Sequence record: LC739534.1
Length of the DNA stretch: 64,000 nucleotides
Direction: 5' to 3' (one strand)
From: Escherichia phage phiWec181
Position 1 is the stretch's first letter. Every line of letters starts with the position of its first letter. The position numbers and the translations under genes are program-made. Below, in pieces: positions 1 through 16,486 of the stretch. The notes beneath the pieces were generated by a model that ran no database searches, was not told where the DNA came from, and saw only the letters and a program-made list of their open reading frames with translations.

Positions 1-1
1 A

Positions 2-844
2 CTAAGCATGACGGATTTGGCAAACGAAGCACAGGTCAAAAGTTTGGTGGTAGAATGCAACCCTGATTTCATTATTCACTTAGCGGCAGAGAGTCATGTG
101 GACAACTCTATCAAAAATCCACGAGCTTTCATCGACTCCAATATCATCGGTACATATAATTTACTGGAAGCTGCGAGACTACTCCCAAGGAATAAGCTGA
201 AGATGTTTGTACACGTCTCCACAGACGAAGTGTACGGCGATATGGCAGACTCTGGCGCTCCCTTTACCGAAGAGACAGCATATACTCCTTCAAGCCCGTA
301 CAGCGCGTCCAAGGCGGCTTCTGATCATCTTGTGAAAGCTTGGCACCGTACTTATGACTTGCCTGTAGTGATAACTAATTGCTCCAATAATTTTGGACCT
401 TACCAATACCCTGAAAAATTGATTCCAAAAGTAATCACAAGCATCTTGACGAACAAAGAAATCCCAGTGTATGGTAAAGGTGATCAGGTACGAGACTGGC
501 TTTTTGTTGAGGACCATGCACGAGCTATTCTTCAGGTAGCTTCTGGCGGCGAACCTGGACAAACTTACAACGTAGGTACACGTAATCCTAAAACCAATAT
601 GGAGATCATCTATATGATTTGTGATTACATGGATGCCGTACACCCGCAAAGTGGAACCTACCCCTCTTCAAGTTTAATAACTTTTGTTGAAGATCGTAAA
701 GGACATGACTTGCATTATGAAATCAACCCTGCTAAGATTGAATCTGAACTGGGTTGGAGTGCAAACTCCACATTTGAACAAGACCTTTACTCTACGATAG
801 AGTGGTATTTAAACAACCCTCAATGGTGGAGAGAAAAGATTTAA
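2..844 (+). CDS. rfbB: dTDP-glucose 4,6-dehydratase (RmlB/RfbB), 5'-truncated at window edge
   Basis: Translation has HLAAESHVD and [13 protein letters not shown] (YxxxK region) typical of RmlB; N-terminal Rossmann part lies upstream of window. Confidence 0.85.
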
Positions 845-852
845 GGAGGGTT

Positions 853-1731
853 ATGAAAGGTATTATTTTGGCTGGAGGAAGTGGAACCCGCCTACATCCA
901 GTAACACGCAGTGTGAGCAAGCAATTGCTCCCTGTGTATGACAAACCTATGATTTATTATCCTTTATCAGTCTTGATGTTGGCAGATATTAAGGATATCT
1001 TAATCATCACAACCCCAGGCGATCAGGAAGATTTTGAGTATCTTCTTGGAGATGGATCTATGTTTGGGATAAAGATCACTTACGCAATGCAGTCTGAACC
1101 ACGAGGTCTTGCAGATGCTTTCATCATTGGTAAAGATTTCATTGGGGAAGATTCTGTTGCCCTTATTTTAGGGGATAACTTGTTCTTCGGACAAAGTTTC
1201 GGAAAACTTCTTATCCAAGCCAGCGAAATGGTGGATGTTTGGGGTGGAGCTTGTATCTTCGGGTATCTGGTGAAAGATCCTGAACGATTCGGTGTTGTTG
1301 AGTTTGGAAGTAATCGCCAAGCTATCTCTATTGAAGAGAAACCGGAACATCCTAAATCAGACTATGCTGTCACGGGTTTGTATTTCTATGACAACTCTGT
1401 TGTTCAACGTGCATTGGAAGTAACCCCTTCCGAGCGTGGAGAACTGGAGATCACAGATATCAATCGCAGCTACCTCGAAGACAGGAAGTTACAAGTTGAA
1501 GTTCTTGGAAGAGGATTCACTTGGTTGGATACAGGGACACACGCCAGTCTAATGGAAGCAGGTCAATTCGTGCAGACTATTGAGAACTGCCAAGGATTGA
1601 AGATTGCGTGCCTGGAAGAGATCGCTTTCAAAAAAGGGTGGATTTCTTTAGAGACTTTGGTGTATCATGGCAACTCATTGAAGAAAACAGAGTACGGGCA
1701 ATATTTGTTAAAATTAGCGGAGGGTAAATGA
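853..1731 (+). CDS. rfbA: glucose-1-phosphate thymidylyltransferase (RmlA/RfbA)
   Basis: N-terminal [12 protein letters not shown] sugar-nucleotidyltransferase motif; SD AAGGAGG upstream of ATG 853. Confidence 0.9.
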
Positions 1732-2288
1732 AAATAAAAGAATTAAGTATTCCTGGTCTGGTTGTCTTTAAACCTCAAGTTTACAAAGATGATCGTGGTT
1801 ACTTCACGGAGACGTTTAACGAGAAGATTTACGAAGAGGTTATTGGCAAACAAACGTTTGTTCAGGATAACCATTCATTCTCTACTTTAGGTGTTCTTCG
1901 CGGAATGCACTTTCAAGTAAACAATCCGCAAGGTAAGCTTGTACGTTGCACACGAGGTGAAGTTTTTGACGTGGCTGTAGATCTTCGTGAAGGTAGTCCA
2001 ACCTTCGGACAATGGGAAGGTGTGATTCTTAGTGGGCGTAACAATAAACAGTTTTGGATTCCACCTGGCTTTGCACATGGTTTTGTTGTAACCTCTTATG
2101 AAGCCAACTTTGAATACAAGTGCACCAACTACTACGATCCGGCATCTGAACGTAGTTTGTTGTGGAACGATCCTACTGTGAATATTGATTGGGGTTTTGA
2201 TATGATTTTCAATGATGAGAATTTTGTACCTATCATTTCGGAAAAGGATGCACAAGCTAAAACACTGAAGGAGCTTATGGAATCATGA
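1728..2288 (+). CDS. rfbC: dTDP-4-dehydrorhamnose 3,5-epimerase (RmlC/RfbC)
   Basis: RmlC-like cupin sequence ([22 protein letters not shown]); start overlaps rfbA stop (ATGA). Confidence 0.85.
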
Positions 2289-3127
2289 AAACATATTTAG
2301 TATTGGGTGGTAATGGTCAATTAGGTCAGGCACTGCGTAAAGTGGTGCCGGAGAATGTGACTTTGGTGTATCCAGAAAAGCGTGTAGATATCACCAGTTT
2401 CGAAGCTGTAAGAAAAGCGATCATGGACACCCCAAATATTAACGGTGTTATCAACTGTGCGGCATACACTGCGGTGGACAAAGCAGAGACAGATGTTGAT
2501 GCAGCTATGGCTGTAAATTTACACGGGGCAGCTAATATTGCTGCCTTCTGTAAGGCTTGGGATATTGACATGGTGCATATTTCTACTGACTATGTGTTCA
2601 ACAGCGATAAACCGTTGTTCCATCAGGATGAACCCAACCCTATCAATGTTTACGGGTTATCTAAAAGTTTGGGTGAAGCTGCTGTTCGTGGTATCTACCA
2701 TAAAGCTTTTATTATCCGCACGGCTTCTGTGTATAGCGAGTTTGGTAACAACTTCCTGAAGACTATGGTGTCTCGTTACAACGATGGTCAAAGAGACTTC
2801 TCGGTAGTTGCAGATCAAACATCTCGACCAACTTATGCCCCAGATTTGGCTAAGATGATTTTCCAAGTGTTGGAAACAGGATATAACACCCGTACTTTGC
2901 ATTACGCTGGGAACATCACTGTTTCGTGGCACCAGTTCGCAAAAATGATATTGACACGTATGCCTGAATCTGTTATTATACACCCGACCTCTGCTGCAAC
3001 CTATAATTCGGCAGCGATGCGACCAGCAAAGTCTATACTAATTACGTCTGGTTGGAACGAACCTTCAAGCGTCGGACAAGGTATTGAAGAATCTTTAGCA
3101 GTATTACTTAATAAGGAGAGAGCATGA
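2285..3127 (+). CDS. rfbD: dTDP-4-dehydrorhamnose reductase (RmlD/RfbD)
   Basis: N-terminal LGGNGQLGQAL dinucleotide-binding motif, RmlD-like length; ATGA overlap with rfbC. Confidence 0.8.
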   Translation: MKTYLVLGGNGQLGQALRKVVPENVTLVYPEKRVDITSFEAVRKAIMDTPNINGVINCAAYTAVDKAETDVDAAMAVNLHGAANIAAFCKAWDIDMVHISTDYVFNSDKPLFHQDEPNPINVYGLSKSLGEAAVRGIYHKAFIIRTASVYSEFGNNFLKTMVSRYNDGQRDFSVVADQTSRPTYAPDLAKMIFQVLETGYNTRTLHYAGNITVSWHQFAKMILTRMPESVIIHPTSAATYNSAAMRPAKSILITSGWNEPSSVGQGIEESLAVLLNKERA

Positions 3128-3384
3128 ATTTTGTAATTTACGGCAAACCAAATTGCCAGTTCTGTGAAATGTCCAAACAACTCTTAACTATGCGTGAAAA
3201 AGAGTTTGAATATCTGACATTAGATCAGGACTATGATTTTGAAGTGATGACTCAAGCAGTGATCGCAGCAACAGGAATTGCACCTCGCACCTTCCCGCAG
3301 ATTTTTGTGGAAGAGCTTGGAGCAGTAACCCACGTAGGCGGTTTTACCGAACTGCGTGATTTCATGGCTCAAATTGCGGAGTAA
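3124..3384 (+). CDS. glutaredoxin/thioredoxin-like protein (NrdC/NrdH-like)
   Basis: 86 aa with CQFC redox motif near N-terminus, same layout as T4 NrdC thioredoxin; ATGA overlap with rfbD. Confidence 0.65.
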   Translation: MNFVIYGKPNCQFCEMSKQLLTMREKEFEYLTLDQDYDFEVMTQAVIAATGIAPRTFPQIFVEELGAVTHVGGFTELRDFMAQIAE

Positions 3385-3389
3385 TATAA

Positions 3390-3539
3390 ATGAAAAGTAA
3401 ACAGAAACGTAAGATCTTTTCTCGTGCTTTAGCAAACGAGCTTAAGTCCAACACAAAGAAGACGAAACCGAAACGTGAGACTTCTCCTGAACATTTACTG
3501 TTTGACGAACTGGATCACGGAGTAGAGGACGACGAATAA
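3390..3539 (+). CDS. small basic protein (49 aa), hypothetical
   Basis: ORF MKSKQKRKIFSRALANELKS... not in ORF track (<60 aa); no clear SD, so low confidence. Confidence 0.3.
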   Translation: MKSKQKRKIFSRALANELKSNTKKTKPKRETSPEHLLFDELDHGVEDDE

Positions 3540-6112: not shown

Positions 6113-6550
6113 ATGTTGAACGTTCCTGTTAAATTCGTCGATAGCTGTGTTAATGCTTACCAACAAACTTGTAAACGTGCCTCAAACTGTTTGCAGTCTT
6201 TGATTCAAACGCGGTACGTGATCCAAAAGAAAAGAAAGTGGTTTGGTAAGGATTCTTATAGTGTTAATGCGTTTGGGGAGTATCAACTCCAATATGACGA
6301 TAACATGCAGCACATCTTAGAGTTTTTACTGATAAAAGATAAAATCTCCCCTGCGGATTACCAGTTACTTAAATTCTACGATCAGAGTTTGTCTATTGAG
6401 GAAGTTATTGAAGATATCCTTTCTCGTAAGACAGATAAGAACACTATTGGTATTACAAACTTAGAGATGCAATTGCTTAATGAGATCTTTTTGTTTGTGG
6501 AAGATGAGTCTGTAACTAAGGAGGAGCTTTTAAATGGCTTTAAGCTATGA
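6113..6550 (+). CDS. hypothetical protein (145 aa)
   Basis: ORF with SD GAGGAG upstream. Confidence 0.5.
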   Translation: MLNVPVKFVDSCVNAYQQTCKRASNCLQSLIQTRYVIQKKRKWFGKDSYSVNAFGEYQLQYDDNMQHILEFLLIKDKISPADYQLLKFYDQSLSIEEVIEDILSRKTDKNTIGITNLEMQLLNEIFLFVEDESVTKEELLNGFKL

Positions 6551-7043
6551 TCGTCCAGAGTCCGATTACTATCCGACTCCGCAAAAAGCGATTAACTCGT
6601 TATTTAGCATTATTGATTTTAAAAATTTGAAAGAGGAAGGATTTACATTTGCAGAACCGTGTAAAGGACAAGCAGCGGCTATTTACCGTCACTTCCCTGA
6701 AGGTTCTCAGTATTGTGAGCTTGAAGAAGGTAAAGATTATTTTAGTCACGTATGGGAAAATCGTCCCGACATTATAATCACTAACCCCCCGTTCAAGCTG
6801 GCATTAGAGTTCTTGGAAAAGAGCTTGAAAGAAGCAGACGTATCAGTCTACCTGCTTCGCTTGGGATTCCTTGAGTCAAAGAAACGTCGAGCGTTTCATC
6901 AAGAAAACCCACCTACGAATTTGATTGTACTCTCCGAACGTCCTTCGTTCGTAGCGGGTGGAACAGATAAGACAGCGTATGCTTGGTACGTATACGATCC
7001 AAAACAAATTTTGGGTCTAACTCAACCATTTTATTTCGTTTAA
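6534..7043 (+). CDS. putative DNA N6-adenine methyltransferase (small, NPPF motif)
   Basis: IITNPPF (motif IV (D/N)PP(F/Y)) preceded by FAEPCKG AdoMet-binding-like motif and DYYPTP. Confidence 0.5.
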   Translation: MALSYDRPESDYYPTPQKAINSLFSIIDFKNLKEEGFTFAEPCKGQAAAIYRHFPEGSQYCELEEGKDYFSHVWENRPDIIITNPPFKLALEFLEKSLKEADVSVYLLRLGFLESKKRRAFHQENPPTNLIVLSERPSFVAGGTDKTAYAWYVYDPKQILGLTQPFYFV

Positions 7044-7053
7044 GGAGCACACT

Positions 7054-7290
7054 ATGGCTAAATTTATTATGACCGTTTCTATTGATTTTGATGATGAGGA
7101 CGGAGGCATTAACTTAGGTATTGCTCAGAACCTGGAAGGGGATTTGAACCCGACAGAAGCAGCTATGGCGGTATTCTTTAAAGATGCCATAACAGCCACA
7201 GCAACGCATTCTGCAAATCAAACTGTAGATTACGGTAGCATGGTTCAAGCCTTGGTTGATGCTCAAAACGGTGAAGATTGGGATGATTAA
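7054..7290 (+). CDS. hypothetical protein (78 aa)
   Basis: ORF with SD AAGGAG upstream. Confidence 0.45.
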   Translation: MAKFIMTVSIDFDDEDGGINLGIAQNLEGDLNPTEAAMAVFFKDAITATATHSANQTVDYGSMVQALVDAQNGEDWDD

Positions 7291-7493
7291 TGGCTTACAA
7301 TTATTATTGCGTTTACGCAAATGAAGCAAAGAAAGGCGACACTGGCACTAATGTCTATGCAGAATCAGAAATACATGCAAAAGAAATTGGTGCGATCCTT
7401 CTGTCACGTTGGACAGGTGGTAACTATTCTGCTGCGGATTTGTTCGCAGAAATGGATGACACCATCCAAGAAGATACCATCACCACAACCTGA
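7290..7493 (+). CDS. hypothetical protein (67 aa)
   Basis: ORF start overlaps previous stop (TAATG). Confidence 0.4.
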   Translation: MAYNYYCVYANEAKKGDTGTNVYAESEIHAKEIGAILLSRWTGGNYSAADLFAEMDDTIQEDTITTT

Positions 7494-7515
7494 TATTGCT
7501 TGAAGTAGTTGGTAC

Positions 7516-7545
7516 TCTCCTTGTTTCGGCAAGGAGGGTATTTTT
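7516..7545 (+). terminator. rho-independent terminator
   Basis: CTCCTTG-TTTCGG-CAAGGAG hairpin followed by GGTATTTTT. Confidence 0.5.
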
Positions 7546-7557
7546 AAGGAGGAAATT

Positions 7558-7749
7558 ATGCAGGAGAATGAAGAGATAGTTGTTAAAAAGTTCCCGACAC
7601 GTACACAGGCAGTCAACTTTGCCTCTGATTTGCTTTTGGATGTGGAAGGAGTTCTCATTAGACATGAAGGGGATTCCTGGAATGTCTCTTATAATGTAAA
7701 CAGATCAATTATATATTTAGGAGAAGAGAACTTCTCTCGTATAGAGTGA
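7558..7749 (+). CDS. hypothetical protein (63 aa)
   Basis: SD AAGGAGG 5 nt upstream of ATG. Confidence 0.45.
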   Translation: MQENEEIVVKKFPTRTQAVNFASDLLLDVEGVLIRHEGDSWNVSYNVNRSIIYLGEENFSRIE

Positions 7750-7763
7750 TCGAAGGAGCAATT

Positions 7764-8336
7764 ATGCGTTCTACTTACACAGGTAAGATTAATTCTGGTA
7801 TCATTTTAGCAGCAGCAGGAATCATCAGCAAAACTTTCAAAGTGGCAAACCTACCAGAGTGTGTAGATTTTGACCACGTATTCAATCCATTAAATCCTTC
7901 TCGTTGTGTTGTTCGTAGCAACGTTGAGAATCCAAATGAGAACTTGTTTTATGTAACATCACCTTCACAAAGTATTCTAAACCAAGTGGAGGCTAAAATT
8001 ATTACCGAAGGTAGTTATTTCTCATTGCTACCTTGTAAATCGGTGGAGATTGAAGATAGTATCACCTTCGCAAATAACTTGGTCTTGACCATGTTCATGG
8101 TTTCTGATAAAGACTGTGGAGACGATATGGTTTTAGCTGTAAGGAATGTTTATGACACATTGGGTATTGCTTATAGCTGTAAGTTGTGCGATGATTATAA
8201 ATCTTGTTCAGACTTTTACATAAATGGTGTTCGGGTATGCCGTGTTGAATCCTACTGGGTGCAAGACACATACATAACAGTAGCGAACGTGATCAATGAA
8301 CCTATGTTCAGCCACGCTTTAGCGTTAATCATTTGA
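7764..8336 (+). CDS. hypothetical protein (190 aa), Cys-rich C-terminal half
   Basis: SD GAAGGAG upstream of ATG 7764; ORF-track start 7746 lacks SD. Confidence 0.5.
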   Translation: MRSTYTGKINSGIILAAAGIISKTFKVANLPECVDFDHVFNPLNPSRCVVRSNVENPNENLFYVTSPSQSILNQVEAKIITEGSYFSLLPCKSVEIEDSITFANNLVLTMFMVSDKDCGDDMVLAVRNVYDTLGIAYSCKLCDDYKSCSDFYINGVRVCRVESYWVQDTYITVANVINEPMFSHALALII

Positions 8337-8346
8337 GGAGGAAGGA

Positions 8347-8676
8347 ATGGAAATTACTACAGAACAGGCTCTTATCGACGAAGGGCGTAAAATCTTAGAG
8401 AAGCATTTGGGAGATATACATCAAACCCCTGGCTACTTAGGGTGGCGCATGGTTGAAGCTGTAGATTTCCTTCCTCGTACAAAACAAGACGTTGAAATGC
8501 GTTCTCTGTTCTTGCTTGTCAAAGTAGACGGGGATACGCCTTTCAAACTCGCAGCTTCACACATTGAGAAGGTGGAGGAGAAAGCTTATTCAGAGTTTGC
8601 CGAACTCGTATTACAGGAGGATCTCGAAGGGAAGGTAAACATTTTTATTTTTCTGGATTTTGAGGAGGAGATATGA
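8347..8676 (+). CDS. hypothetical protein (109 aa)
   Basis: SD GGAGGAAGGA upstream. Confidence 0.5.
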   Translation: MEITTEQALIDEGRKILEKHLGDIHQTPGYLGWRMVEAVDFLPRTKQDVEMRSLFLLVKVDGDTPFKLAASHIEKVEEKAYSEFAELVLQEDLEGKVNIFIFLDFEEEI

Positions 8677-9410
8677 TTTTATATAAAGAGATTACCGTGG
8701 AGCAGGATCAAGACCTCTTCATCATCGGGGACTTACATGGTTGCTACGATCTTTACTTGAAAGGTAAGAATTATCTTGGTATCCGAGATACAGATGTGGT
8801 TGTGTCTCTCGGAGATTTGACAGATCGCGGTAAACAAAACTTCAAATGTGTTGTGGAATTTACACGCAAAGAGAATCGTTATGCGCTTTGTGGTAATCAC
8901 GAAGATATGATGATTAAAGGCTTACTGGAAGGGGATCGTCGTTACTACGAATGTTGGTATCAGAACGGTGGTCATACAGTGTTGGCAGAATGTGATGAAG
9001 AAGGCTCTACATTACTTGCTACGATGGTCGAGGACAACCCTGTGGTTTTGGTTGTGAATTACCGAGGTATGAAGTTAGGGTTTATTCATGGCGGATATCC
9101 TTCCTCTTTTGAATATATTCCGCTGACAGACATACCGCACCTACGTATGAACAAAGCAAGAGAGGCTACTTTTGCTGAAGCTTTGATGTGGGATCGTGAC
9201 ATGGTGGAGTGTGCTAAAGAAGGTATGAAACTTCCGGTTGTTATGGGTGTTGATTATGTGTTTCACGGGCACTCTTATGTGAAAGAACCTTTGATCAATG
9301 CTAATCGTGTTTATATGGACACTGGGTCTGTTTTCAATAACAACTTAACGTTTGCCTATTTTGATGCAGACGGTGGACTTCAGTTTTATTCAACTTTACA
9401 GGAGGATTAA
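8673..9410 (+). CDS. Ser/Thr protein phosphatase (calcineurin-like metallophosphoesterase)
   Basis: Ordered GDLHGC, GDLTDRG and GNHE metallophosphatase motifs. Confidence 0.75.
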   Translation: MILYKEITVEQDQDLFIIGDLHGCYDLYLKGKNYLGIRDTDVVVSLGDLTDRGKQNFKCVVEFTRKENRYALCGNHEDMMIKGLLEGDRRYYECWYQNGGHTVLAECDEEGSTLLATMVEDNPVVLVVNYRGMKLGFIHGGYPSSFEYIPLTDIPHLRMNKAREATFAEALMWDRDMVECAKEGMKLPVVMGVDYVFHGHSYVKEPLINANRVYMDTGSVFNNNLTFAYFDADGGLQFYSTLQED

Positions 9411-9703
9411 TGTATAAAATTACAATCGTAGAATCTGTGGGTGAGATTCGTAAAGAAATTATTCTGGAGACGGAAGATCTGGAACTGGTACGTGAAATCA
9501 TAATTGGTAAGAATGTAGACAAGGTGGAGTCGGACGCACCCAACCTGATGATCGATGACCAATATGCAGAATTTCGTCGTATTTTTGAGGAAGAAAGGAA
9601 GAAGTGGGGCAAAGAACCAAACGTTTTTCGTCCTTATAATCCGTATCCTTCTGGTGATCCGTGGATCATGACTAACAGAAACCCGTTTGAAATAACCTGT
9701 TGA
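9410..9703 (+). CDS. hypothetical protein (97 aa)
   Basis: ORF overlapping previous stop (TAATG). Confidence 0.45.
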   Translation: MYKITIVESVGEIRKEIILETEDLELVREIIIGKNVDKVESDAPNLMIDDQYAEFRRIFEEERKKWGKEPNVFRPYNPYPSGDPWIMTNRNPFEITC

Positions 9704-9711
9704 GGTGGCCT

Positions 9712-10290
9712 ATGAGCAACCTATTTTACACAGGCGTGGGAAGTCGAGAGATAACCCACGAAGAATGGGATTTAATGGTCGCTGTAGCAAAGTGGTTGGC
9801 TAACTGTGGTTTTACTTTACGTTCAGGTAATGCAAACGGTAGTGACTCTGCTTTCGAAACAGGTGTGGAAGAATCCAAAAACAAATCTCTCAAGGAGATT
9901 TATATCCCTTGGGAGAAGTTTGAAGGCAATGATATTCCAGGTGAGAAAATAGTTCTTGCTAAACCTGACAGTATGAACTATGCTATCAGTCTCCAGTGGA
10001 TAAAGGATATTCATCCGGCATTTGATAAATTGAAACAAGGTGCACGTAAATTGCATCAACGTAACGTTCATCAGGTGTTGGGACAAGATCTGGAGCATCC
10101 AATTCCTTCTTTGTTTTTACTGGCTTGTTCCAAAGAAGATAAGAAGGGAGACGTTATGGGTGGAACACGGACGGCGTGGCTCATCGCTAAAGCTAATAAC
10201 GTTCCATGTTTTAACTTACGTGGTAAAACAAAGGAAGAACTTTATGCTTTTCTTAAACCGTTGGTCAAGGGGGCAATCAGTGGCAATTAA
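9712..10290 (+). CDS. SLOG/DprA-like Rossmann-fold protein (putative nucleotide-binding)
   Basis: GVGSREIT...LRSGNANGSDSAFETG resembles the DprA/Smf GxR...SGxAxGxDxAAH core; assignment tentative. Confidence 0.4.
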   Translation: MSNLFYTGVGSREITHEEWDLMVAVAKWLANCGFTLRSGNANGSDSAFETGVEESKNKSLKEIYIPWEKFEGNDIPGEKIVLAKPDSMNYAISLQWIKDIHPAFDKLKQGARKLHQRNVHQVLGQDLEHPIPSLFLLACSKEDKKGDVMGGTRTAWLIAKANNVPCFNLRGKTKEELYAFLKPLVKGAISGN

Positions 10291-11873: not shown

Positions 11874-12812
11874 ATGAAAGTATTAATCGGTAGTCGTGCG
11901 TTGGAAATGATTTGTCGTTCTCGTGGTGTAGAACTGTATCGTGCTTGCGTAGATCTGGATTACCTCTGCACTGAAGAAGAGTGGCAAGCAGAAGCCCAGA
12001 AATTCTCGAAAGATCGTTTCGTAGAAATTGTTGAACGTAAAGGTAACAAAGGGCATATCAAAATGATCGCGGGCGCTCATCTGGAATATGATATTGCACA
12101 ACCAGGCGACTCTACAGATGCTTTGATTCAATACATCAAAGAGAATGCAGATCATCTGCCGCGTATTGGTTATGATGTGGTCGCGCCTTTGGATGTTTTA
12201 TACCTTCTGAAGATGAGTCACCGTTTTAAGAAGGACAGTCCTCACTTCCTGAAAACAATGAAGGATATCCACTTCATGCGTAACCTTGGAGCGAAGATCC
12301 CTGAAGAGTTGGAAGATACATACAAACTGCGTCAGAAGGAGTCCTATAATTACGGGCACCCTAATCTGAACGTGAAAAGTAAAGATTTCTTCAAGGGTGA
12401 TGAAGTGCCTTATGTGTATGATCACGATAGCCTGCACAGAGTTTTAGCTGTAATGGAGGAACCAGCTTACACGAACTACCTAAAGGATGGTAACGAGGTA
12501 ATGACAAGTAAAGATAAGTTCTATGCTGTTGACGAAACTACCAGATTGCTTGGGGTGTTAGAGGAGAGTTTGGTTCTGGCTTCGGAAAGGTGTCTAATAC
12601 CTTTCAACTACAGTGTTACAGGGAAGAAGGCATTTCTTATGGCTTTGACTAAAGTTTGCACTTCTATCACATCGGGCTACTTTCGAGAATATGCTTATGA
12701 AAAGTTCTTCCTTGTGTGTAAGGTATACGATAATATGTATCCTAACGACGAGTGGGTGGATACGTTAAGACAAGCCATAGATAAGGGGGCTGTTGATGTA
12801 TATAAAGCATAA
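11874..12812 (+). CDS. hypothetical protein (312 aa), possible minimal nucleotidyltransferase fold
   Basis: SD GAGAGGAGG upstream; N-terminal LIGSRAL...VDLDYL loosely resembles the GS...DxD NTase motif (weak). Confidence 0.5.
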   Translation: MKVLIGSRALEMICRSRGVELYRACVDLDYLCTEEEWQAEAQKFSKDRFVEIVERKGNKGHIKMIAGAHLEYDIAQPGDSTDALIQYIKENADHLPRIGYDVVAPLDVLYLLKMSHRFKKDSPHFLKTMKDIHFMRNLGAKIPEELEDTYKLRQKESYNYGHPNLNVKSKDFFKGDEVPYVYDHDSLHRVLAVMEEPAYTNYLKDGNEVMTSKDKFYAVDETTRLLGVLEESLVLASERCLIPFNYSVTGKKAFLMALTKVCTSITSGYFREYAYEKFFLVCKVYDNMYPNDEWVDTLRQAIDKGAVDVYKA

Positions 12813-13407
12813 ATATTTAGGAATCACAGACGAAGACTCCAAAGATGGAGAATTCGTCTACACGATCACAGCAGCGAATGGATACTACCAGACCCGTATA
12901 GGGGGTTTATGGAGAGCTTTAAATGCGCGGGTAGGTAAGGGATCATACACAAACGTATGTGTAGATTTTAAAGATTTCAAAGAGTTTGCCGAGAGTGTAA
13001 CAATATTAGCCAATTATAAAACATTAGATAGTTATGGGAACCACTATCACTTAGATAAAGACTTAAAATGTTACAAGAAGGATAAATCTTACAACAAAGA
13101 TTCAGTGCTGTTTATCCCTGGGCACTTAAATACCGCCTTGAAAGGTGTGATCCCTTACTTGGAGTGTGGGGCTACTTGTGGAGTCAGTTTTAGTAAGATT
13201 CGGAATAAGTTTCGAGCCTACTGTAATGATGGCGGTAGTAGACAGATACATTTAGGGTACTTCGAAAGTAAAGAAGCTGCTCAAAAAGCTTGGGTATTGG
13301 AGAAGATAAATCAAATAAAACGTTCCTTAATCAAAGAGAACATCTCGGACGAAGATATTTTGTATTTTACGGGTGTTTTGATAAGCGATTTAGAAGGAGG
13401 TTATTGA
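12793..13407 (+). CDS. AP2-domain-like DNA-binding protein (possible homing-endonuclease relative)
   Basis: C-terminal GVSFSKIRNKFRAYCNDGGSRQIHLGYFESKEAAQKAW matches the AP2 pattern common in phage HNH/AP2 endonucleases; nuclease motif not evident. Confidence 0.4.
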   Translation: MMYIKHKYLGITDEDSKDGEFVYTITAANGYYQTRIGGLWRALNARVGKGSYTNVCVDFKDFKEFAESVTILANYKTLDSYGNHYHLDKDLKCYKKDKSYNKDSVLFIPGHLNTALKGVIPYLECGATCGVSFSKIRNKFRAYCNDGGSRQIHLGYFESKEAAQKAWVLEKINQIKRSLIKENISDEDILYFTGVLISDLEGGY

Positions 13408-13408
13408 T

Positions 13409-13807
13409 ATGGGTTGGTGTGATCAGTCACAAAGTTACTTCAAAGTGACACATGTGGATCTCAACAAGGCAAGAGTGAAGCTGTTGAGTATTGAAAAAGA
13501 AACAGCAGCTATTGACAAACGCCTCCGAGAGAGTAAAGTGGTAATCACTTCTTGGTTCGGACTGAAACGTAAAGTCCTCACGCAGCGAGAGCATGTAATT
13601 AAAAATATGCATGGTTGGGCTTGGTTCCACGACATGGCAAAACACCTGGGGTACATTTCTACTGAAGAACACGACCTCTTGGAGCTACGTTATCGCCTTC
13701 CAGATGTAGAAGATTTAGATTTGTGGATCAGTTCCGAACAAATCTTCTTAACCGAGAGCGATTGGAAGAAAGTCAATATTTGTCTTAAATGGAGGGAGAA
13801 TGAGTAA
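13409..13807 (+). CDS. hypothetical protein (132 aa)
   Basis: ORF with SD GAAGGAGG upstream. Confidence 0.45.
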   Translation: MGWCDQSQSYFKVTHVDLNKARVKLLSIEKETAAIDKRLRESKVVITSWFGLKRKVLTQREHVIKNMHGWAWFHDMAKHLGYISTEEHDLLELRYRLPDVEDLDLWISSEQIFLTESDWKKVNICLKWRENE

Positions 13808-14483
13808 AGTAGTTTTATCAACATTTGATGGATCTGGGATCATGGTACTTCGTTACGCAGAAGCGGGACATAAATGCTATTGTGTAAATGCTGACGAAGG
13901 TGATCACGGGGCTTATGAAGTTCGCATGGAACATCCTAACATCACTTACGTGAACGCATGGATTGATTCCAACTTCAACCCTGAAGATTACGGTATTCCT
14001 AAGCCAGATATTATCTTTGGCTTCCCTCCATGTACCATGCTTGCTGGTTGCGGTAGTAAGCACGAACGTAGCGCAGAAGAGTTGGAAGAAGCTTTGGCTA
14101 ACATTCGTATCGTGGAAGCTTTAGGAAATAAATACAACGTTCCGTGGATGATTGAGAATCCGGTGGGTAAACTGTCAACATTGTGGCGTAAACCGGATTT
14201 CTATTTCGATCCTTACGAATATGGCGGATATCTGTTTGATGAAGAAGGCAGCTTCCACCCTAAAATGCCTACCCGTGACGGTTACACAAAGAAAACCTGT
14301 ATTTGGCATGGCAATGGTTTTGTTAAGCCTGTGAAGAAGCCTGTGGAACATATTGGTTGCTTCTGGGGCTGGAAAAGTTTAGGCGGAGCAAGTGCGAAAA
14401 CAAAGCAACTCCGATCGTTAACTGCTCGCGGTTTTGCTCGTGCTGTGTTTTTATCTAACAACCTTTTAGATAAGGAGGAATGA
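13800..14483 (+). CDS. compact C5-methyltransferase-fold protein (motifs I, IV, VI only)
   Basis: FDGSG (motif I), GFPPC (motif IV PC) and ENPVG (motif VI ENV) in canonical order, but only 227 aa with no room for a TRD or motifs VIII-X. Confidence 0.5.
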   Translation: MSKVVLSTFDGSGIMVLRYAEAGHKCYCVNADEGDHGAYEVRMEHPNITYVNAWIDSNFNPEDYGIPKPDIIFGFPPCTMLAGCGSKHERSAEELEEALANIRIVEALGNKYNVPWMIENPVGKLSTLWRKPDFYFDPYEYGGYLFDEEGSFHPKMPTRDGYTKKTCIWHGNGFVKPVKKPVEHIGCFWGWKSLGGASAKTKQLRSLTARGFARAVFLSNNLLDKEE

Positions 14484-15148
14484 TGACCCATTTAAAACCT
14501 TTTGGTGGAAAACCTATTGTGGCGTATCAAGTAGATCGTGATGATTGGGAAGGCAGTGTAGTTGTCTTTGGTAATCATTTCTTTGCTGTGCGTCGTAAAG
14601 GCGCAAGCATGTTAGATTGTGAGGAGGAGTATTGTCATGTCTCCCGTGCCAAAGAATTCGACCAGTATGTAGAAAAAGGTTTTGTGCCTGTCAAAGCTTT
14701 ACTGGAGGCAGGATGGTGGATACACTCTGCTCATGATGGTGTTAGACTTGACGAGTCTGTAGATAGTCTTGAGGCAGATTTTGACGAATGTGAAGATGGC
14801 ATGTATATTGAGGGGGATCTTGTATTTTCCCTTGACGAGAAAAGTGTGTGGAAGAACTGGGAAGAAATGGAACGTCACGCGCATTTTATCAATGATGCTT
14901 TGATTCGTAAAGCTTGGTTCACGGAGGCGGTGAAGGTAGCGTATCCGCAATTCACCTTTACAGAGGTTTGGGGCGGTCCACACCACATCACCCATACAGC
15001 ATTTTTCGACTTCCCTGGTTCACGTTACAAAGGTAATGTAATGTGGGACTGGGATGAGAATGAAGTACCATCTGTTCAAGACTTTCGTTGTTATGTTTGC
15101 CAAGGCGATCAAGAAGCCCTTGACAAATACCTGCAAAGTCTGGTATAG
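14480..15148 (+). CDS. hypothetical protein (222 aa)
   Basis: SD AAGGAGG upstream; start overlaps previous stop. Confidence 0.5.
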   Translation: MMTHLKPFGGKPIVAYQVDRDDWEGSVVVFGNHFFAVRRKGASMLDCEEEYCHVSRAKEFDQYVEKGFVPVKALLEAGWWIHSAHDGVRLDESVDSLEADFDECEDGMYIEGDLVFSLDEKSVWKNWEEMERHAHFINDALIRKAWFTEAVKVAYPQFTFTEVWGGPHHITHTAFFDFPGSRYKGNVMWDWDENEVPSVQDFRCYVCQGDQEALDKYLQSLV

Positions 15149-15206: not shown

Positions 15207-15701
15207 ATGTTTCAAGTAGAAATTCATGTGCACAACAGTTGTTCAAATTGCGAAACTTGTGGTTACAATAGTTCAACCATGATCACTGTTAGCGGAGACT
15301 TAGGACATGCCAAGTTTGGCGAAGTCGCAAGCTGCTTCAGCGGAGAGGATGCAGATTGGCATGATATTGCTTTGTGGCTATGCGGAAGACTGAATGTAAA
15401 TTGTAAAGACTTCCCTGAACTGTTGAGCCGAAATCTTATTGATAGTCGGGAACAAGCCTACAATATTTATGCCGCTTCTGTTTATGTTGATCATAAATGG
15501 GTAGAAGATGAAGAAGCTGAACGTTTGCTGCGCCTCTACTACGAAGCAGAGGAAGCTTATGATAACTATTATAGCATGTCCAACATTCTACGCTTGTTTG
15601 CAGAGTTTGATATTTACTTTGAAGTGAGTTATTCTGAAGAGGAAGTGTATGATTTTGATGACGATGATTACGAGGAGGATGAAGAATGCCAAGACGATTA
15701 A
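15207..15701 (+). CDS. hypothetical acidic protein (164 aa) with N-terminal Cys cluster
   Basis: SD GGGAGG upstream of ATG 15207; CSNCETCG motif; highly acidic C-terminus. Confidence 0.5.
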   Translation: MFQVEIHVHNSCSNCETCGYNSSTMITVSGDLGHAKFGEVASCFSGEDADWHDIALWLCGRLNVNCKDFPELLSRNLIDSREQAYNIYAASVYVDHKWVEDEEAERLLRLYYEAEEAYDNYYSMSNILRLFAEFDIYFEVSYSEEEVYDFDDDDYEEDEECQDD

Positions 15702-16486
15702 TAGTGATCAGCGGTGCTGGTCTAAGCGCCGATAGCGGTGTACGTACTTTCCGCACTGATACAGATAGCGGGAAAGCTTTGTGGGATGAATACGACCTTT
15801 CTGAAGTGTGCGATATTTTCAATTTCCGTGCTGGCTACCAGCAAGAACAATGTGTTCCTGGCGCTGCTGGTGGATTAGATGCAGAGGGATACAACCTCTA
15901 CCGTAAAACTCACGACTTCTACAATAAACGTCGCGTAGAGATGGATAGTGTGTCTCCTAACGCTGCGCATTACCAGATCGCAGAGTGGTTCCAAGAGTAC
16001 GGCTGCGATCGTGTTATCAACATCACAACAAACGTAGATGATCTTCTGGAACAAGCAGGGGTTGTTCATGAAGATGTTCTGCATGTTCACGGCTTCCTGC
16101 CTGAAGTGATTGTAGACAATAGAATCATCAAGGATGTTGGTTATGCTGCTATTGATGTAGATGATTACAAGTATGTGAAGCCCAATGTAGTGTTCTTTGG
16201 GGAGACTGCCCCACTGTATAACGATATGTACCACATCTTAGACGGCTTGACGGCTCAAGATATGGTGGTTGTAGTGGGCTGCTCTAATCAAGTGATCAAC
16301 TTCAACTGGGATTTGTTCCCAGCCCTCAACATAGGAACAAAGATGGTCGTAGTTAATCCTGGGGTTAATTACGAAGAAACACTTCTCTATGAAGATCGTG
16401 GAGTTTTTGTTTACCGAGAAAAAGCTGCAACAGCCTTCAGTAATGAAGGTTTCATTAAAATGATCGAAGACCACTTAAACAAATAA
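15686..16486 (+). CDS. SIR2-family (sirtuin-like) NAD-dependent protein
   Basis: N-terminal VISGAGLSADSGVRTFR matches sirtuin GAGISxxSGIPxFR; HVHGF resembles the catalytic His region. Confidence 0.7.
   Translation: MPRRLIVISGAGLSADSGVRTFRTDTDSGKALWDEYDLSEVCDIFNFRAGYQQEQCVPGAAGGLDAEGYNLYRKTHDFYNKRRVEMDSVSPNAAHYQIAEWFQEYGCDRVINITTNVDDLLEQAGVVHEDVLHVHGFLPEVIVDNRIIKDVGYAAIDVDDYKYVKPNVVFFGETAPLYNDMYHILDGLTAQDMVVVVGCSNQVINFNWDLFPALNIGTKMVVVNPGVNYEETLLYEDRGVFVYREKAATAFSNEGFIKMIEDHLNK

Follow-up and report, generated by a model that had tools for sequence, protein, structure and literature searches.

A compact Dcm-like protein of Escherichia phage phiWec181, probably a stand-alone DNA cytosine-C5 methyltransferase

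How can a protein of only 227 amino acids that carries catalytic motifs of a DNA cytosine-C5 methyltransferase (C5-MTase) act, and on what substrate? The question is raised by an open reading frame (ORF) in a 64,000-nucleotide stretch of Escherichia phage phiWec181 (LC739534.1), hereafter the window. The ORF listing of the window places it, with an ATG start, at 13800..14483 on the + strand, exactly where it had been predicted. The initial annotation, made from the letters of the sequence, had recognised motifs I, IV and VI, considered the protein too short for a target-recognition domain and for motifs VIII-X, and proposed that the chemistry of C5-MTases or thymidylate synthases is reused here on free nucleotides or for base hypermodification. 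Canonical C5-MTases carry a recognition domain of 80-100 amino acids. Our analysis indicates that the protein is probably a stand-alone, orphan C5-MTase dependent on S-adenosylmethionine (AdoMet), belonging to a compact 'Dcm-like' phage family (phrog_757) and having a probable anti-restriction role at CCWGG. Family membership, fold, catalytic-residue conservation and purifying selection are directly established. That the protein is an active DNA C5-MTase we consider very probable; that it is specific for CCWGG, a motif taken from a homologue, appears somewhat better than an even chance. An anti-restriction role is the most likely one, and the main residual uncertainty concerns specificity.

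Family, fold and catalytic residues

A scan of PHROGs matched the protein over its full length to phrog_757, 'DNA methyltransferase' (E=1.1e-82), with residues 1-223 aligned to positions 13-221 of the 247-position profile. Homologues were found by tblastn in 1,489 phage records, near full length in 1,452, and range over the Drexlerviridae, including Webervirus, the Vequintavirinae and many others. Many of these records annotate the gene product as a DNA/C5-cytosine methyltransferase or Dcm, and bacterial homologues with 62-64% identity are named 'DNA cytosine methyltransferase' by NCBI. An exhaustive search with the family profile returned 1,847 clusters at 50% identity, the full-length members being nearly all 200-260 amino acids long. 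In an alignment of 61 diverse homologues that are 30-59% identical to the query, which underlies all conservation counts given here, length runs from 202 to 257 amino acids with a median of 228; the short length is a stable family trait and not a truncation. The family is thus already catalogued and widely annotated, with one member functionally studied, and the window protein is an uncharacterised orthologue in another phage family. The compact fold also occurs as a domain in very large proteins of uncultured phages, as seen in BFVD entries A0A6J5SE15_1 (1397 amino acids) and A0A6J5NPY6_2 (1126 amino acids), matched by Foldseek at E ~1e-11 to 1e-10 with 25-26% identity; one of them is annotated with a helicase/UvrB N-terminal domain.

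The motifs FDGSG, GFPPC and ENPVG follow one another along the protein in the order that the initial annotation had described. Eight residues are invariant in the alignment (C78, G85, E119, P121, P138, Y162, W169 and P177), and a further 12 are at least 90% conserved (F75, P76, T79, N120, R130, K164, T166, R205, S206, P209, G211 and A215). Conservation of this kind shows that the motifs are not fortuitous. Motif I, whose glycine G13 is found in 48/61 homologues, aligns with the FxGxG of M.HaeIII and E. coli Dcm. Motif IV aligns with the PC motif of the same two enzymes, with F75 kept in 58/61 and P76 in 57/61, and the residue preceding Cys78 is proline in 47/61 and otherwise E, V, D or T. Motif VI aligns with the ENV of E. 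coli Dcm. The protein therefore has both marks of the superfamily, a motif IV Pro-Cys with the catalytic cysteine and the motif VI glutamate. Absence of that cysteine from an alignment had been named at the outset as an observation that would overturn the assignment, and it is present in every member.

The proposed equivalence of strand 7 to motif VIII rests on the strand order in the AlphaFold2 model described below and from the structure-based assignment in the study of the phage K42 enzyme discussed in the next section. K164 and K165 occupy the place of the canonical R-x-R (Q-x-R-x-R in canonical motif VIII, Y-T-K-K-T here), and position 165 is lysine in 30/61 and arginine in 14/61 homologues. 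The C-terminal block (…TKQLRSLTARGFARAVF…) is also well conserved, with R205 in 60/61, S206 in 56/61, T208 in 53/61, P209 in 59/61, G211 in 59/61 and A215 in 57/61. Within E. coli Dcm it locally matches the motif IX sequence RRLTPRECAR best, at a non-significant E=0.37 that is suggestive only, and the C-terminal sub-profile gave no significant or relevant match to PDB sequences. Hence the supposition that the protein lacks room for motifs VIII-X does not appear to hold, since a positional equivalent of motif VIII and a conserved IX/X-like block are both present. The supposed lack of a target-recognition domain is essentially right: no canonical domain lies between motifs VIII and IX, and the intervening segment, the most variable part of the protein apart from its invariant P177, has 20-40 residues across the 61 members (median 28) and 27 in the window protein. 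A candidate for an additional DNA-contact element is the family-specific stretch at residues 137-161, which lies between strands 6 and 7.

The AlphaFold2 model, built from 36 homologues, is confident, with a mean predicted local distance difference test score (pLDDT) of 88.6 and a predicted template modelling score (pTM) of 0.88. Its strands are arranged in the seven-strand order expected for a class I methyltransferase, with three short helices at the C-terminus; the fold is of class I and has C5-MTase-specific elements. Catalytic domains of DNMT3A/3B made up the entire top 50 of a Foldseek search against the PDB (probability 1.00, lowest E 2.7e-8), and structural comparison scored 14.1 for DNMT3B, 12.2 for a prophage MTase and 11.8 for M.HhaI. 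In a viral structure library, family members named cytosine methylases came first, followed by other viral C5-MTases. Together with the ENV-type glutamate and the cysteine, these matches bear out the C5-MTase fold first proposed. No thymidylate synthase or dCMP hydroxymethylase was among the top structural matches listed; the analogy originally drawn with these enzymes extends to the general chemistry and stops at the fold, which differs. Comparison with the orthologue in phage phAPEC8 revealed 94% amino-acid identity on 81% nucleotide identity and strong purifying selection, with pN=0.038 for non-synonymous change and pS=0.76 for synonymous change, the latter being saturated.

The K42 homologue and CCWGG sites

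The functionally studied family member comes from phage K42, which is 95.4% identical to the BASEL phage KarlJaspers (bioRxiv 10.1101/2023.08.16.553469; published after peer review, and cited independently, as Wang et al., Cell Rep 2024;43:114857). All K42 escapers from retron Ec86/Eco1 were mutated in a 711-bp 'dcm' gene, whose product was toxic on expression only when the retron was present, and LC-MS (mass spectrometry coupled to liquid chromatography) detected high 5-methylcytosine (5mC) in the retron's msDNA (multicopy single-stranded DNA) from cells expressing K42 Dcm (10.1101/2023.08.16.553469). A C82A/E128A/K175A/K176A quadruple mutant, in which K175 and K176 are the named substrate-binding residues, was inactive, and changing CCTGG in the msDNA to AATGG, ACTGG or CATGG abolished defence (10.1101/2023.08.16.553469). 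In KarlJaspers (Bas06, MZ501090) the corresponding gene is bas06_0055, annotated as 'Dcm-like C5 cytosine methyltransferase' (711 bp, 236 amino acids). By BLASTP its product is 50% identical end to end to the window protein (E=3e-70), and C82, E128, K175 and K176 of the K42/KarlJaspers enzyme align with C78, E119, K164 and K165 here. Because of this end-to-end identity and these aligned residues, the window protein is placed in a family with a demonstrated DNA C5-methylating member.

The host of the K42 study, MG1655, carries its own CCWGG methylase, Dcm (b1961), yet before expression of the phage enzyme 5mC in the msDNA was low and the retron gave no response. Why MG1655 Dcm leaves the msDNA poorly methylated is not taken up in the preprint (10.1101/2023.08.16.553469). 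The observation points tentatively to a difference in substrate range or activity between host Dcm and the compact phage enzyme.

Site frequencies in the window were examined by comparing observed with expected counts for 112 palindromic words of four to six letters. CCWGG is the second least-avoided of these words (134 observed vs 111 expected), and GATC is likewise unavoided. CCSGG is purged (1 observed vs 20 expected), and KarlJaspers shows the same contrast between CCWGG and CCSGG. The contrast is circumstantial evidence, fitting a situation in which CCWGG is protected by methylation and related unprotected sites are selected against.

Gene neighbourhood and other features of the window

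The coordinates of the gene and of its elements are collected in Table 1. There is an 8-nucleotide overlap between the ATG and the stop of the ORF upstream (13409..13807), and the downstream ORF is in the same operon as the MTase gene, yet it is not a conserved partner. We considered this translationally coupled ORF as a conserved specificity partner and rejected it: it has no similarity to the KarlJaspers neighbour, and no such partner is found in HeinrichReichert or Kp109.

Table 1. Coordinates of the MTase gene, its sequence elements and the coupled downstream ORF in the window
Feature	Positions	Strand	Details
Shine-Dalgarno-like GGAGGGAG	13791..13798	+	read directly from sequence
Compact (mini) DNA cytosine-C5 methyltransferase gene	13800..14483	+	227 aa, phrog_757 / phage 'Dcm-like' family
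Motif I, FDGSG (aa 9-13), AdoMet-binding loop after strand 1	13824..13838	+	consensus L-[FYC]-D-x-[TS]-G
Motif IV, GFPPC (aa 74-78), catalytic nucleophile Cys78	14019..14033	+	C78 in 61/61; family F-P-x-C-T
Motif VI, ENPVG (aa 119-123), Glu119 = ENV-type glutamate	14154..14168	+	E119, P121 61/61; N120 58/61
Family-specific conserved segment, aa 137-161, between strands 6 and 7	14208..14282	+	P138 invariant; Y141/G143/Y144, D160
Motif VIII positional equivalent, YTKKTCIW (aa 162-169, strand 7)	14283..14306	+	Y162, W169 61/61; K164, T166 60/61
Vestigial target-recognition segment, aa 172-198, 27 aa	14313..14393	+	between motif VIII strand and C-terminal block
Conserved C-terminal block AKTKQLRSLTARGFARAVFLSN, aa 199-220, putative equivalent of motif IX and/or X	14394..14459	+	helices 199-206, 210-219
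Downstream 222-aa ORF, phrog_8514 (function not known)	14480..15148	+	ATG overlaps MTase stop (ATGA)

Scans of PHROGs and Pfam identified the neighbours of the MTase gene as DUF7275/DUF7277, an HNH-endonuclease-like ORF, phrog_16551, phrog_8514, phrog_9509 and a Sir2 homologue. Neither these scans nor the annotation within +/-20 kb of a 100%-identical orthologue revealed a dioxygenase or DNA glycosyltransferase adjoining the MTase, genes that in known phage clusters for C5-MT/5mYOX (TET) hypermodification lie adjacent to it. In KarlJaspers, HeinrichReichert (Vequintavirus) and Kp109 (Webervirus) the family member stands among unrelated small genes, helicases or a homing endonuclease, so that its neighbours are not conserved across the four phage lineages. 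Since the neighbours are unrelated between lineages and no hypermodification genes are adjacent, we read the gene as a stand-alone orphan MTase and not as part of a pathway. The sole thymidylate synthase gene lies ~19 kb from the MTase, upstream in phage PsgM04F, in a separate nucleotide-metabolism block.

By megablast the MTase region is 100% identical to Escherichia phages phiWec179 and phiWec186, relatives of phAPEC8 among the Phapecoctavirus myoviruses, with genomes of ~154 kb. The records of both label the gene product 'hypothetical protein'. A 100%-identical protein of PsgM04F and the RefSeq phAPEC8 orthologue are labelled 'DNA methyltransferase', and the orthologue of phage nepoznato 'Dcm'. 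The gene in the window can accordingly be named a Dcm-like DNA cytosine-C5 methyltransferase in place of 'hypothetical protein'. PsgM04F (OR584014) is recorded as a 'Pseudomonas phage' with Pseudomonas coronafaciens as host, and shows 97.8% DNA identity to the E. coli phiWec phages over the MTase region. Given this and the identical MTase that it encodes, there is reason to question the host assignment or the isolation history in that record.

Several other genes in the vicinity deserve mention in their own right. The HNH-endonuclease-like ORF (12793-13407, + strand, 204 amino acids; phrog_953 E=1.8e-25, weak AP2 domain match) lies two genes upstream of the MTase. Matches to most relatives, including phAPEC8 and PsgM04F, begin only downstream of it, and no gene is annotated at this place in PsgM04F; the ORF probably represents the insertion of a homing endonuclease. 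A homologue of Sir2/CobB-like NAD-dependent deacylases (15686-16486, + strand; phrog_2162 E=5.7e-101, Pfam SIR2 E=1e-19) lies three genes downstream of the MTase, in the same direction. A second small 'DNA methyltransferase' ORF (6534-7043, + strand, 169 amino acids), the orthologue of phAPEC8 gp177, has a match to the phrog_799 profile that covers only positions 206-367 of 458 (E=3e-54), with sub-threshold hints to adenine-MTase families in Pfam; possible readings are a fragment, a split enzyme and a minimal domain. In this lineage the nucleotide-metabolism region contains dTDP-rhamnose genes (nucleotide-sugar epimerases and dTDP-4-dehydrorhamnose 3,5-epimerase) and a thioredoxin-domain gene, all of which are placed at window ~1-3400 by synteny with PsgM04F 6642-10174. 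Others have speculated on rhamnosylation of modified (hydroxymethylated) bases in Phapecoctavirus. Outside the window, PsgM04F (OR584014) encodes at 300-1295 a 331-amino-acid 'thymidylate synthase' with no PDB sequence match at E<=1e-5, which is not usual among classical ThyA proteins and points to a pyrimidine-modifying enzyme that is divergent or of another kind. We found no methylome or nucleoside data on Phapecoctavirus or Stephanstirmvirinae in the literature, the papers holding annotation only.

The word counts revealed further strong depletion of restriction-type words in the window, with CTSAG at 5 observed vs 49 expected, GGCC at 29 vs 106, GTAC at 117 vs 220 and CCGG at 53 vs 97; GGATCC, TCCGGA, CTGCAG and CACGTG each occur 0 times. 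CTAG is also absent, with 0 in the 64-kb window vs 176 +/- 11 in dinucleotide shuffles and a Markov expectation of 118. It is missing too from 47.9 kb more of phiWec179 (106500-154443) and from 40.7 kb of PsgM04F, and the homologous 20 kb of phAPEC8, of the same genus, contains 23. This suggests a lineage-specific total purge under strong selection by a CTAG-targeting nuclease. We found no paper in the literature on total CTAG absence.

Proposed activity, alternatives and known systems

A catalytic mechanism can be proposed by combining standard C5-MTase chemistry with the catalytic residues conserved here. The target cytosine would be flipped out and attacked at C6 by Cys78 of motif IV, while Glu119 of motif VI would protonate or hydrogen-bond N3/N4. 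Lys164/Lys165 would hold the flipped base and the backbone, and the methyl group of AdoMet, itself held by the motif I loop, would be moved to C5. Because there is no full recognition domain, reading of the sequence would have to use the 27-residue loop, the segment at residues 137-161 and possibly oligomerisation. Replicating phage DNA would thereby be methylated, most probably at the inner C of CCWGG as reported for the homologue, and would be guarded from EcoRII-type and CCNGG-type restriction independently of host Dcm. Such protection may carry a cost known from a homologue, in which the same activity methylates retron Ec86/Eco1 msDNA and leads to abortive infection.

A number of observations weigh against reading the protein as an active, CCWGG-specific C5-MTase. 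Sequence similarity to canonical C5-MTases is below significance. Pfam scans, including PF00145, and NCBIfam scans gave no match even at E<=10, and just 1/61 family members reaches PF00145, at E=0.0067, besides a precomputed PF00145 match on one close relative (P0064). The family profile found nothing among PDB sequences at E<=1, phmmer gave only a weak match to M.HaeIII (E=0.45, aligning motifs I-IV), and hhalign of the family against the single sequence of E. coli Dcm put motifs I, IV and VI in register but was not significant (E=0.01, probability 4%). A canonical motif X could not be positively identified when the C-terminal sub-profile was compared with PDB sequences and with Dcm, and the acidic residue of motif II (D in 56/61) is N30 here, as it is N in KarlJaspers Dcm. 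As regards specificity, the window protein and KarlJaspers Dcm agree least in the recognition segment, which has an indel and ~44% identity, and the non-avoidance of CCWGG is also expected from host Dcm alone. AdoMet-dependent 5mC formation on DNA has been reported solely for the K42 homologue, whose CCWGG specificity was assumed from host Dcm and is supported by the msDNA mutants and bulk 5mC, not by genome-wide mapping (10.1101/2023.08.16.553469).

These points leave some room for a DNA C5-MTase whose specificity or substrate preference is unlike that of host Dcm, its vestigial recognition domain reading a shorter or degenerate motif, or hairpin or single-stranded-like DNA. We regard this as unlikely. 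It would accord with the variability of the 27-residue segment and its indel relative to KarlJaspers Dcm, with the unmapped motif of the K42 enzyme (10.1101/2023.08.16.553469), and with the low msDNA 5mC of dcm-carrying MG1655 before the phage enzyme is supplied, which suggests a substrate beyond the reach of the host enzyme. However, a high level of expression could by itself account for that difference between host and phage enzymes; triggering is lost with ACTGG and with CATGG in the msDNA, as would be expected if both Cs of CCWGG are needed; and the purging of CCSGG alongside retention of CCWGG in both phage genomes argues against protection of the whole of CCNGG. A catalytically dead, methyltransferase-like DNA-binding protein, such as a regulator or decoy, would be in keeping with the failure of canonical profile hidden Markov models (HMMs) to recognise the protein, the asparagine in motif II and the elusive motif X. 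Such a protein is nevertheless extremely improbable, as the Cys/Glu/Lys catalytic set is kept in homologues of as little as 30% identity, purifying selection is strong, and the active KarlJaspers/K42 enzyme has the same asparagine and the same C-terminal block.

The role put forward in the initial annotation, C5-MTase chemistry on free nucleotides or 5mC formation as the first step of a hypermodification route (5mC to 5-hydroxymethylcytosine (5hmC) to glycosylated C), fares poorly and we judge it very improbable. Phage C5-MTases that feed TET/5mYOX and glycosyltransferase pathways are described in the literature, and this lineage has dTDP-rhamnose genes and a gene annotated as thymidylate synthase 10-20 kb upstream of the MTase, to which the published speculation on rhamnosylation of hydroxymethylated bases may be added. 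Yet the full-length, 50%-identical homologue deposits plain 5mC on polymer DNA in a CC(T)GG-dependent manner. Around the MTase itself lie DUF7275/7277, the HNH-like ORF, three ORFs of unknown function and Sir2, where known pathways keep their dioxygenase and glycosyltransferase genes, and in Drexlerviridae, Vequintavirinae and Webervirus the family is an isolated gene with unrelated neighbours. Among the structural neighbours there is no enzyme of C5-MTase fold with a free-nucleotide substrate. An RNA (tRNA) cytosine-C5 methyltransferase of Dnmt2 type, acting on host or phage tRNAs, is scarcely credible: the structural scores are higher for DNA MTases, the homologue methylates DNA, and the family is common in small siphoviruses, with no annotated tRNA gene in 50,000 of the 51,474 bp of KarlJaspers.

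With an orphan DNA C5-MTase as the favoured reading, the phage is predicted to methylate its own DNA without host Dcm, which would matter for its host range on restriction-proficient or dcm- strains, and it may be sensed by retron Eco1/Ec86, which would matter for the choice of phage or host in therapy. We also raise, as a tentative and on balance doubtful possibility, that the compact family reads DNA by a new solution, combining residues 137-161 with the loop of ~28 residues and perhaps a dimer, and accepts substrates that host Dcm does not, such as the hairpin msDNA. If so, this would explain why retron Eco1 is triggered by the phage enzyme and not by host Dcm, and the family would be among the smallest sequence-specific DNA C5-methyltransferases known. 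At ~225 amino acids and without a solved structure, the family is a natural minimal C5-MTase scaffold, and how it reads sequence is a question for the whole family and not for this window in particular.

Among known systems, the K42/KarlJaspers Dcm is of the same family and shares architecture, catalytic residues, compact size and a vestigial recognition segment with the window protein, both being isolated genes in lytic coliphages. It differs in coming from a Drexlerviridae siphovirus and not a 154-kb Phapecoctavirus myovirus, and, by count from the alignment, in a recognition segment that carries an indel and is ~44% identical. E. coli Dcm (M.EcoKDcm, 472 amino acids, PF00145) would use the same chemistry and has the CCWGG target reported for the phage homologue. 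It has, however, twice the length, a complete recognition domain and motifs IX and X that are clear, and the phage gene lacks a vsr partner. Relative to M.HhaI and M.HaeIII (~327-330 amino acids), the window protein is ~100 residues shorter, the loss falling in the recognition domain, and has K-K instead of R-x-R in motif VIII. The DNMT3A/DNMT3B catalytic domains are 13-18% identical and, unlike the phage protein, are eukaryotic, CpG-specific and regulated by extra domains and partners. Thymidylate synthase and dCMP hydroxymethylase resemble it in the general chemistry only, addition of a cysteine at pyrimidine C6 that activates C5, and differ in having another fold, a folate cofactor and mononucleotide substrates.

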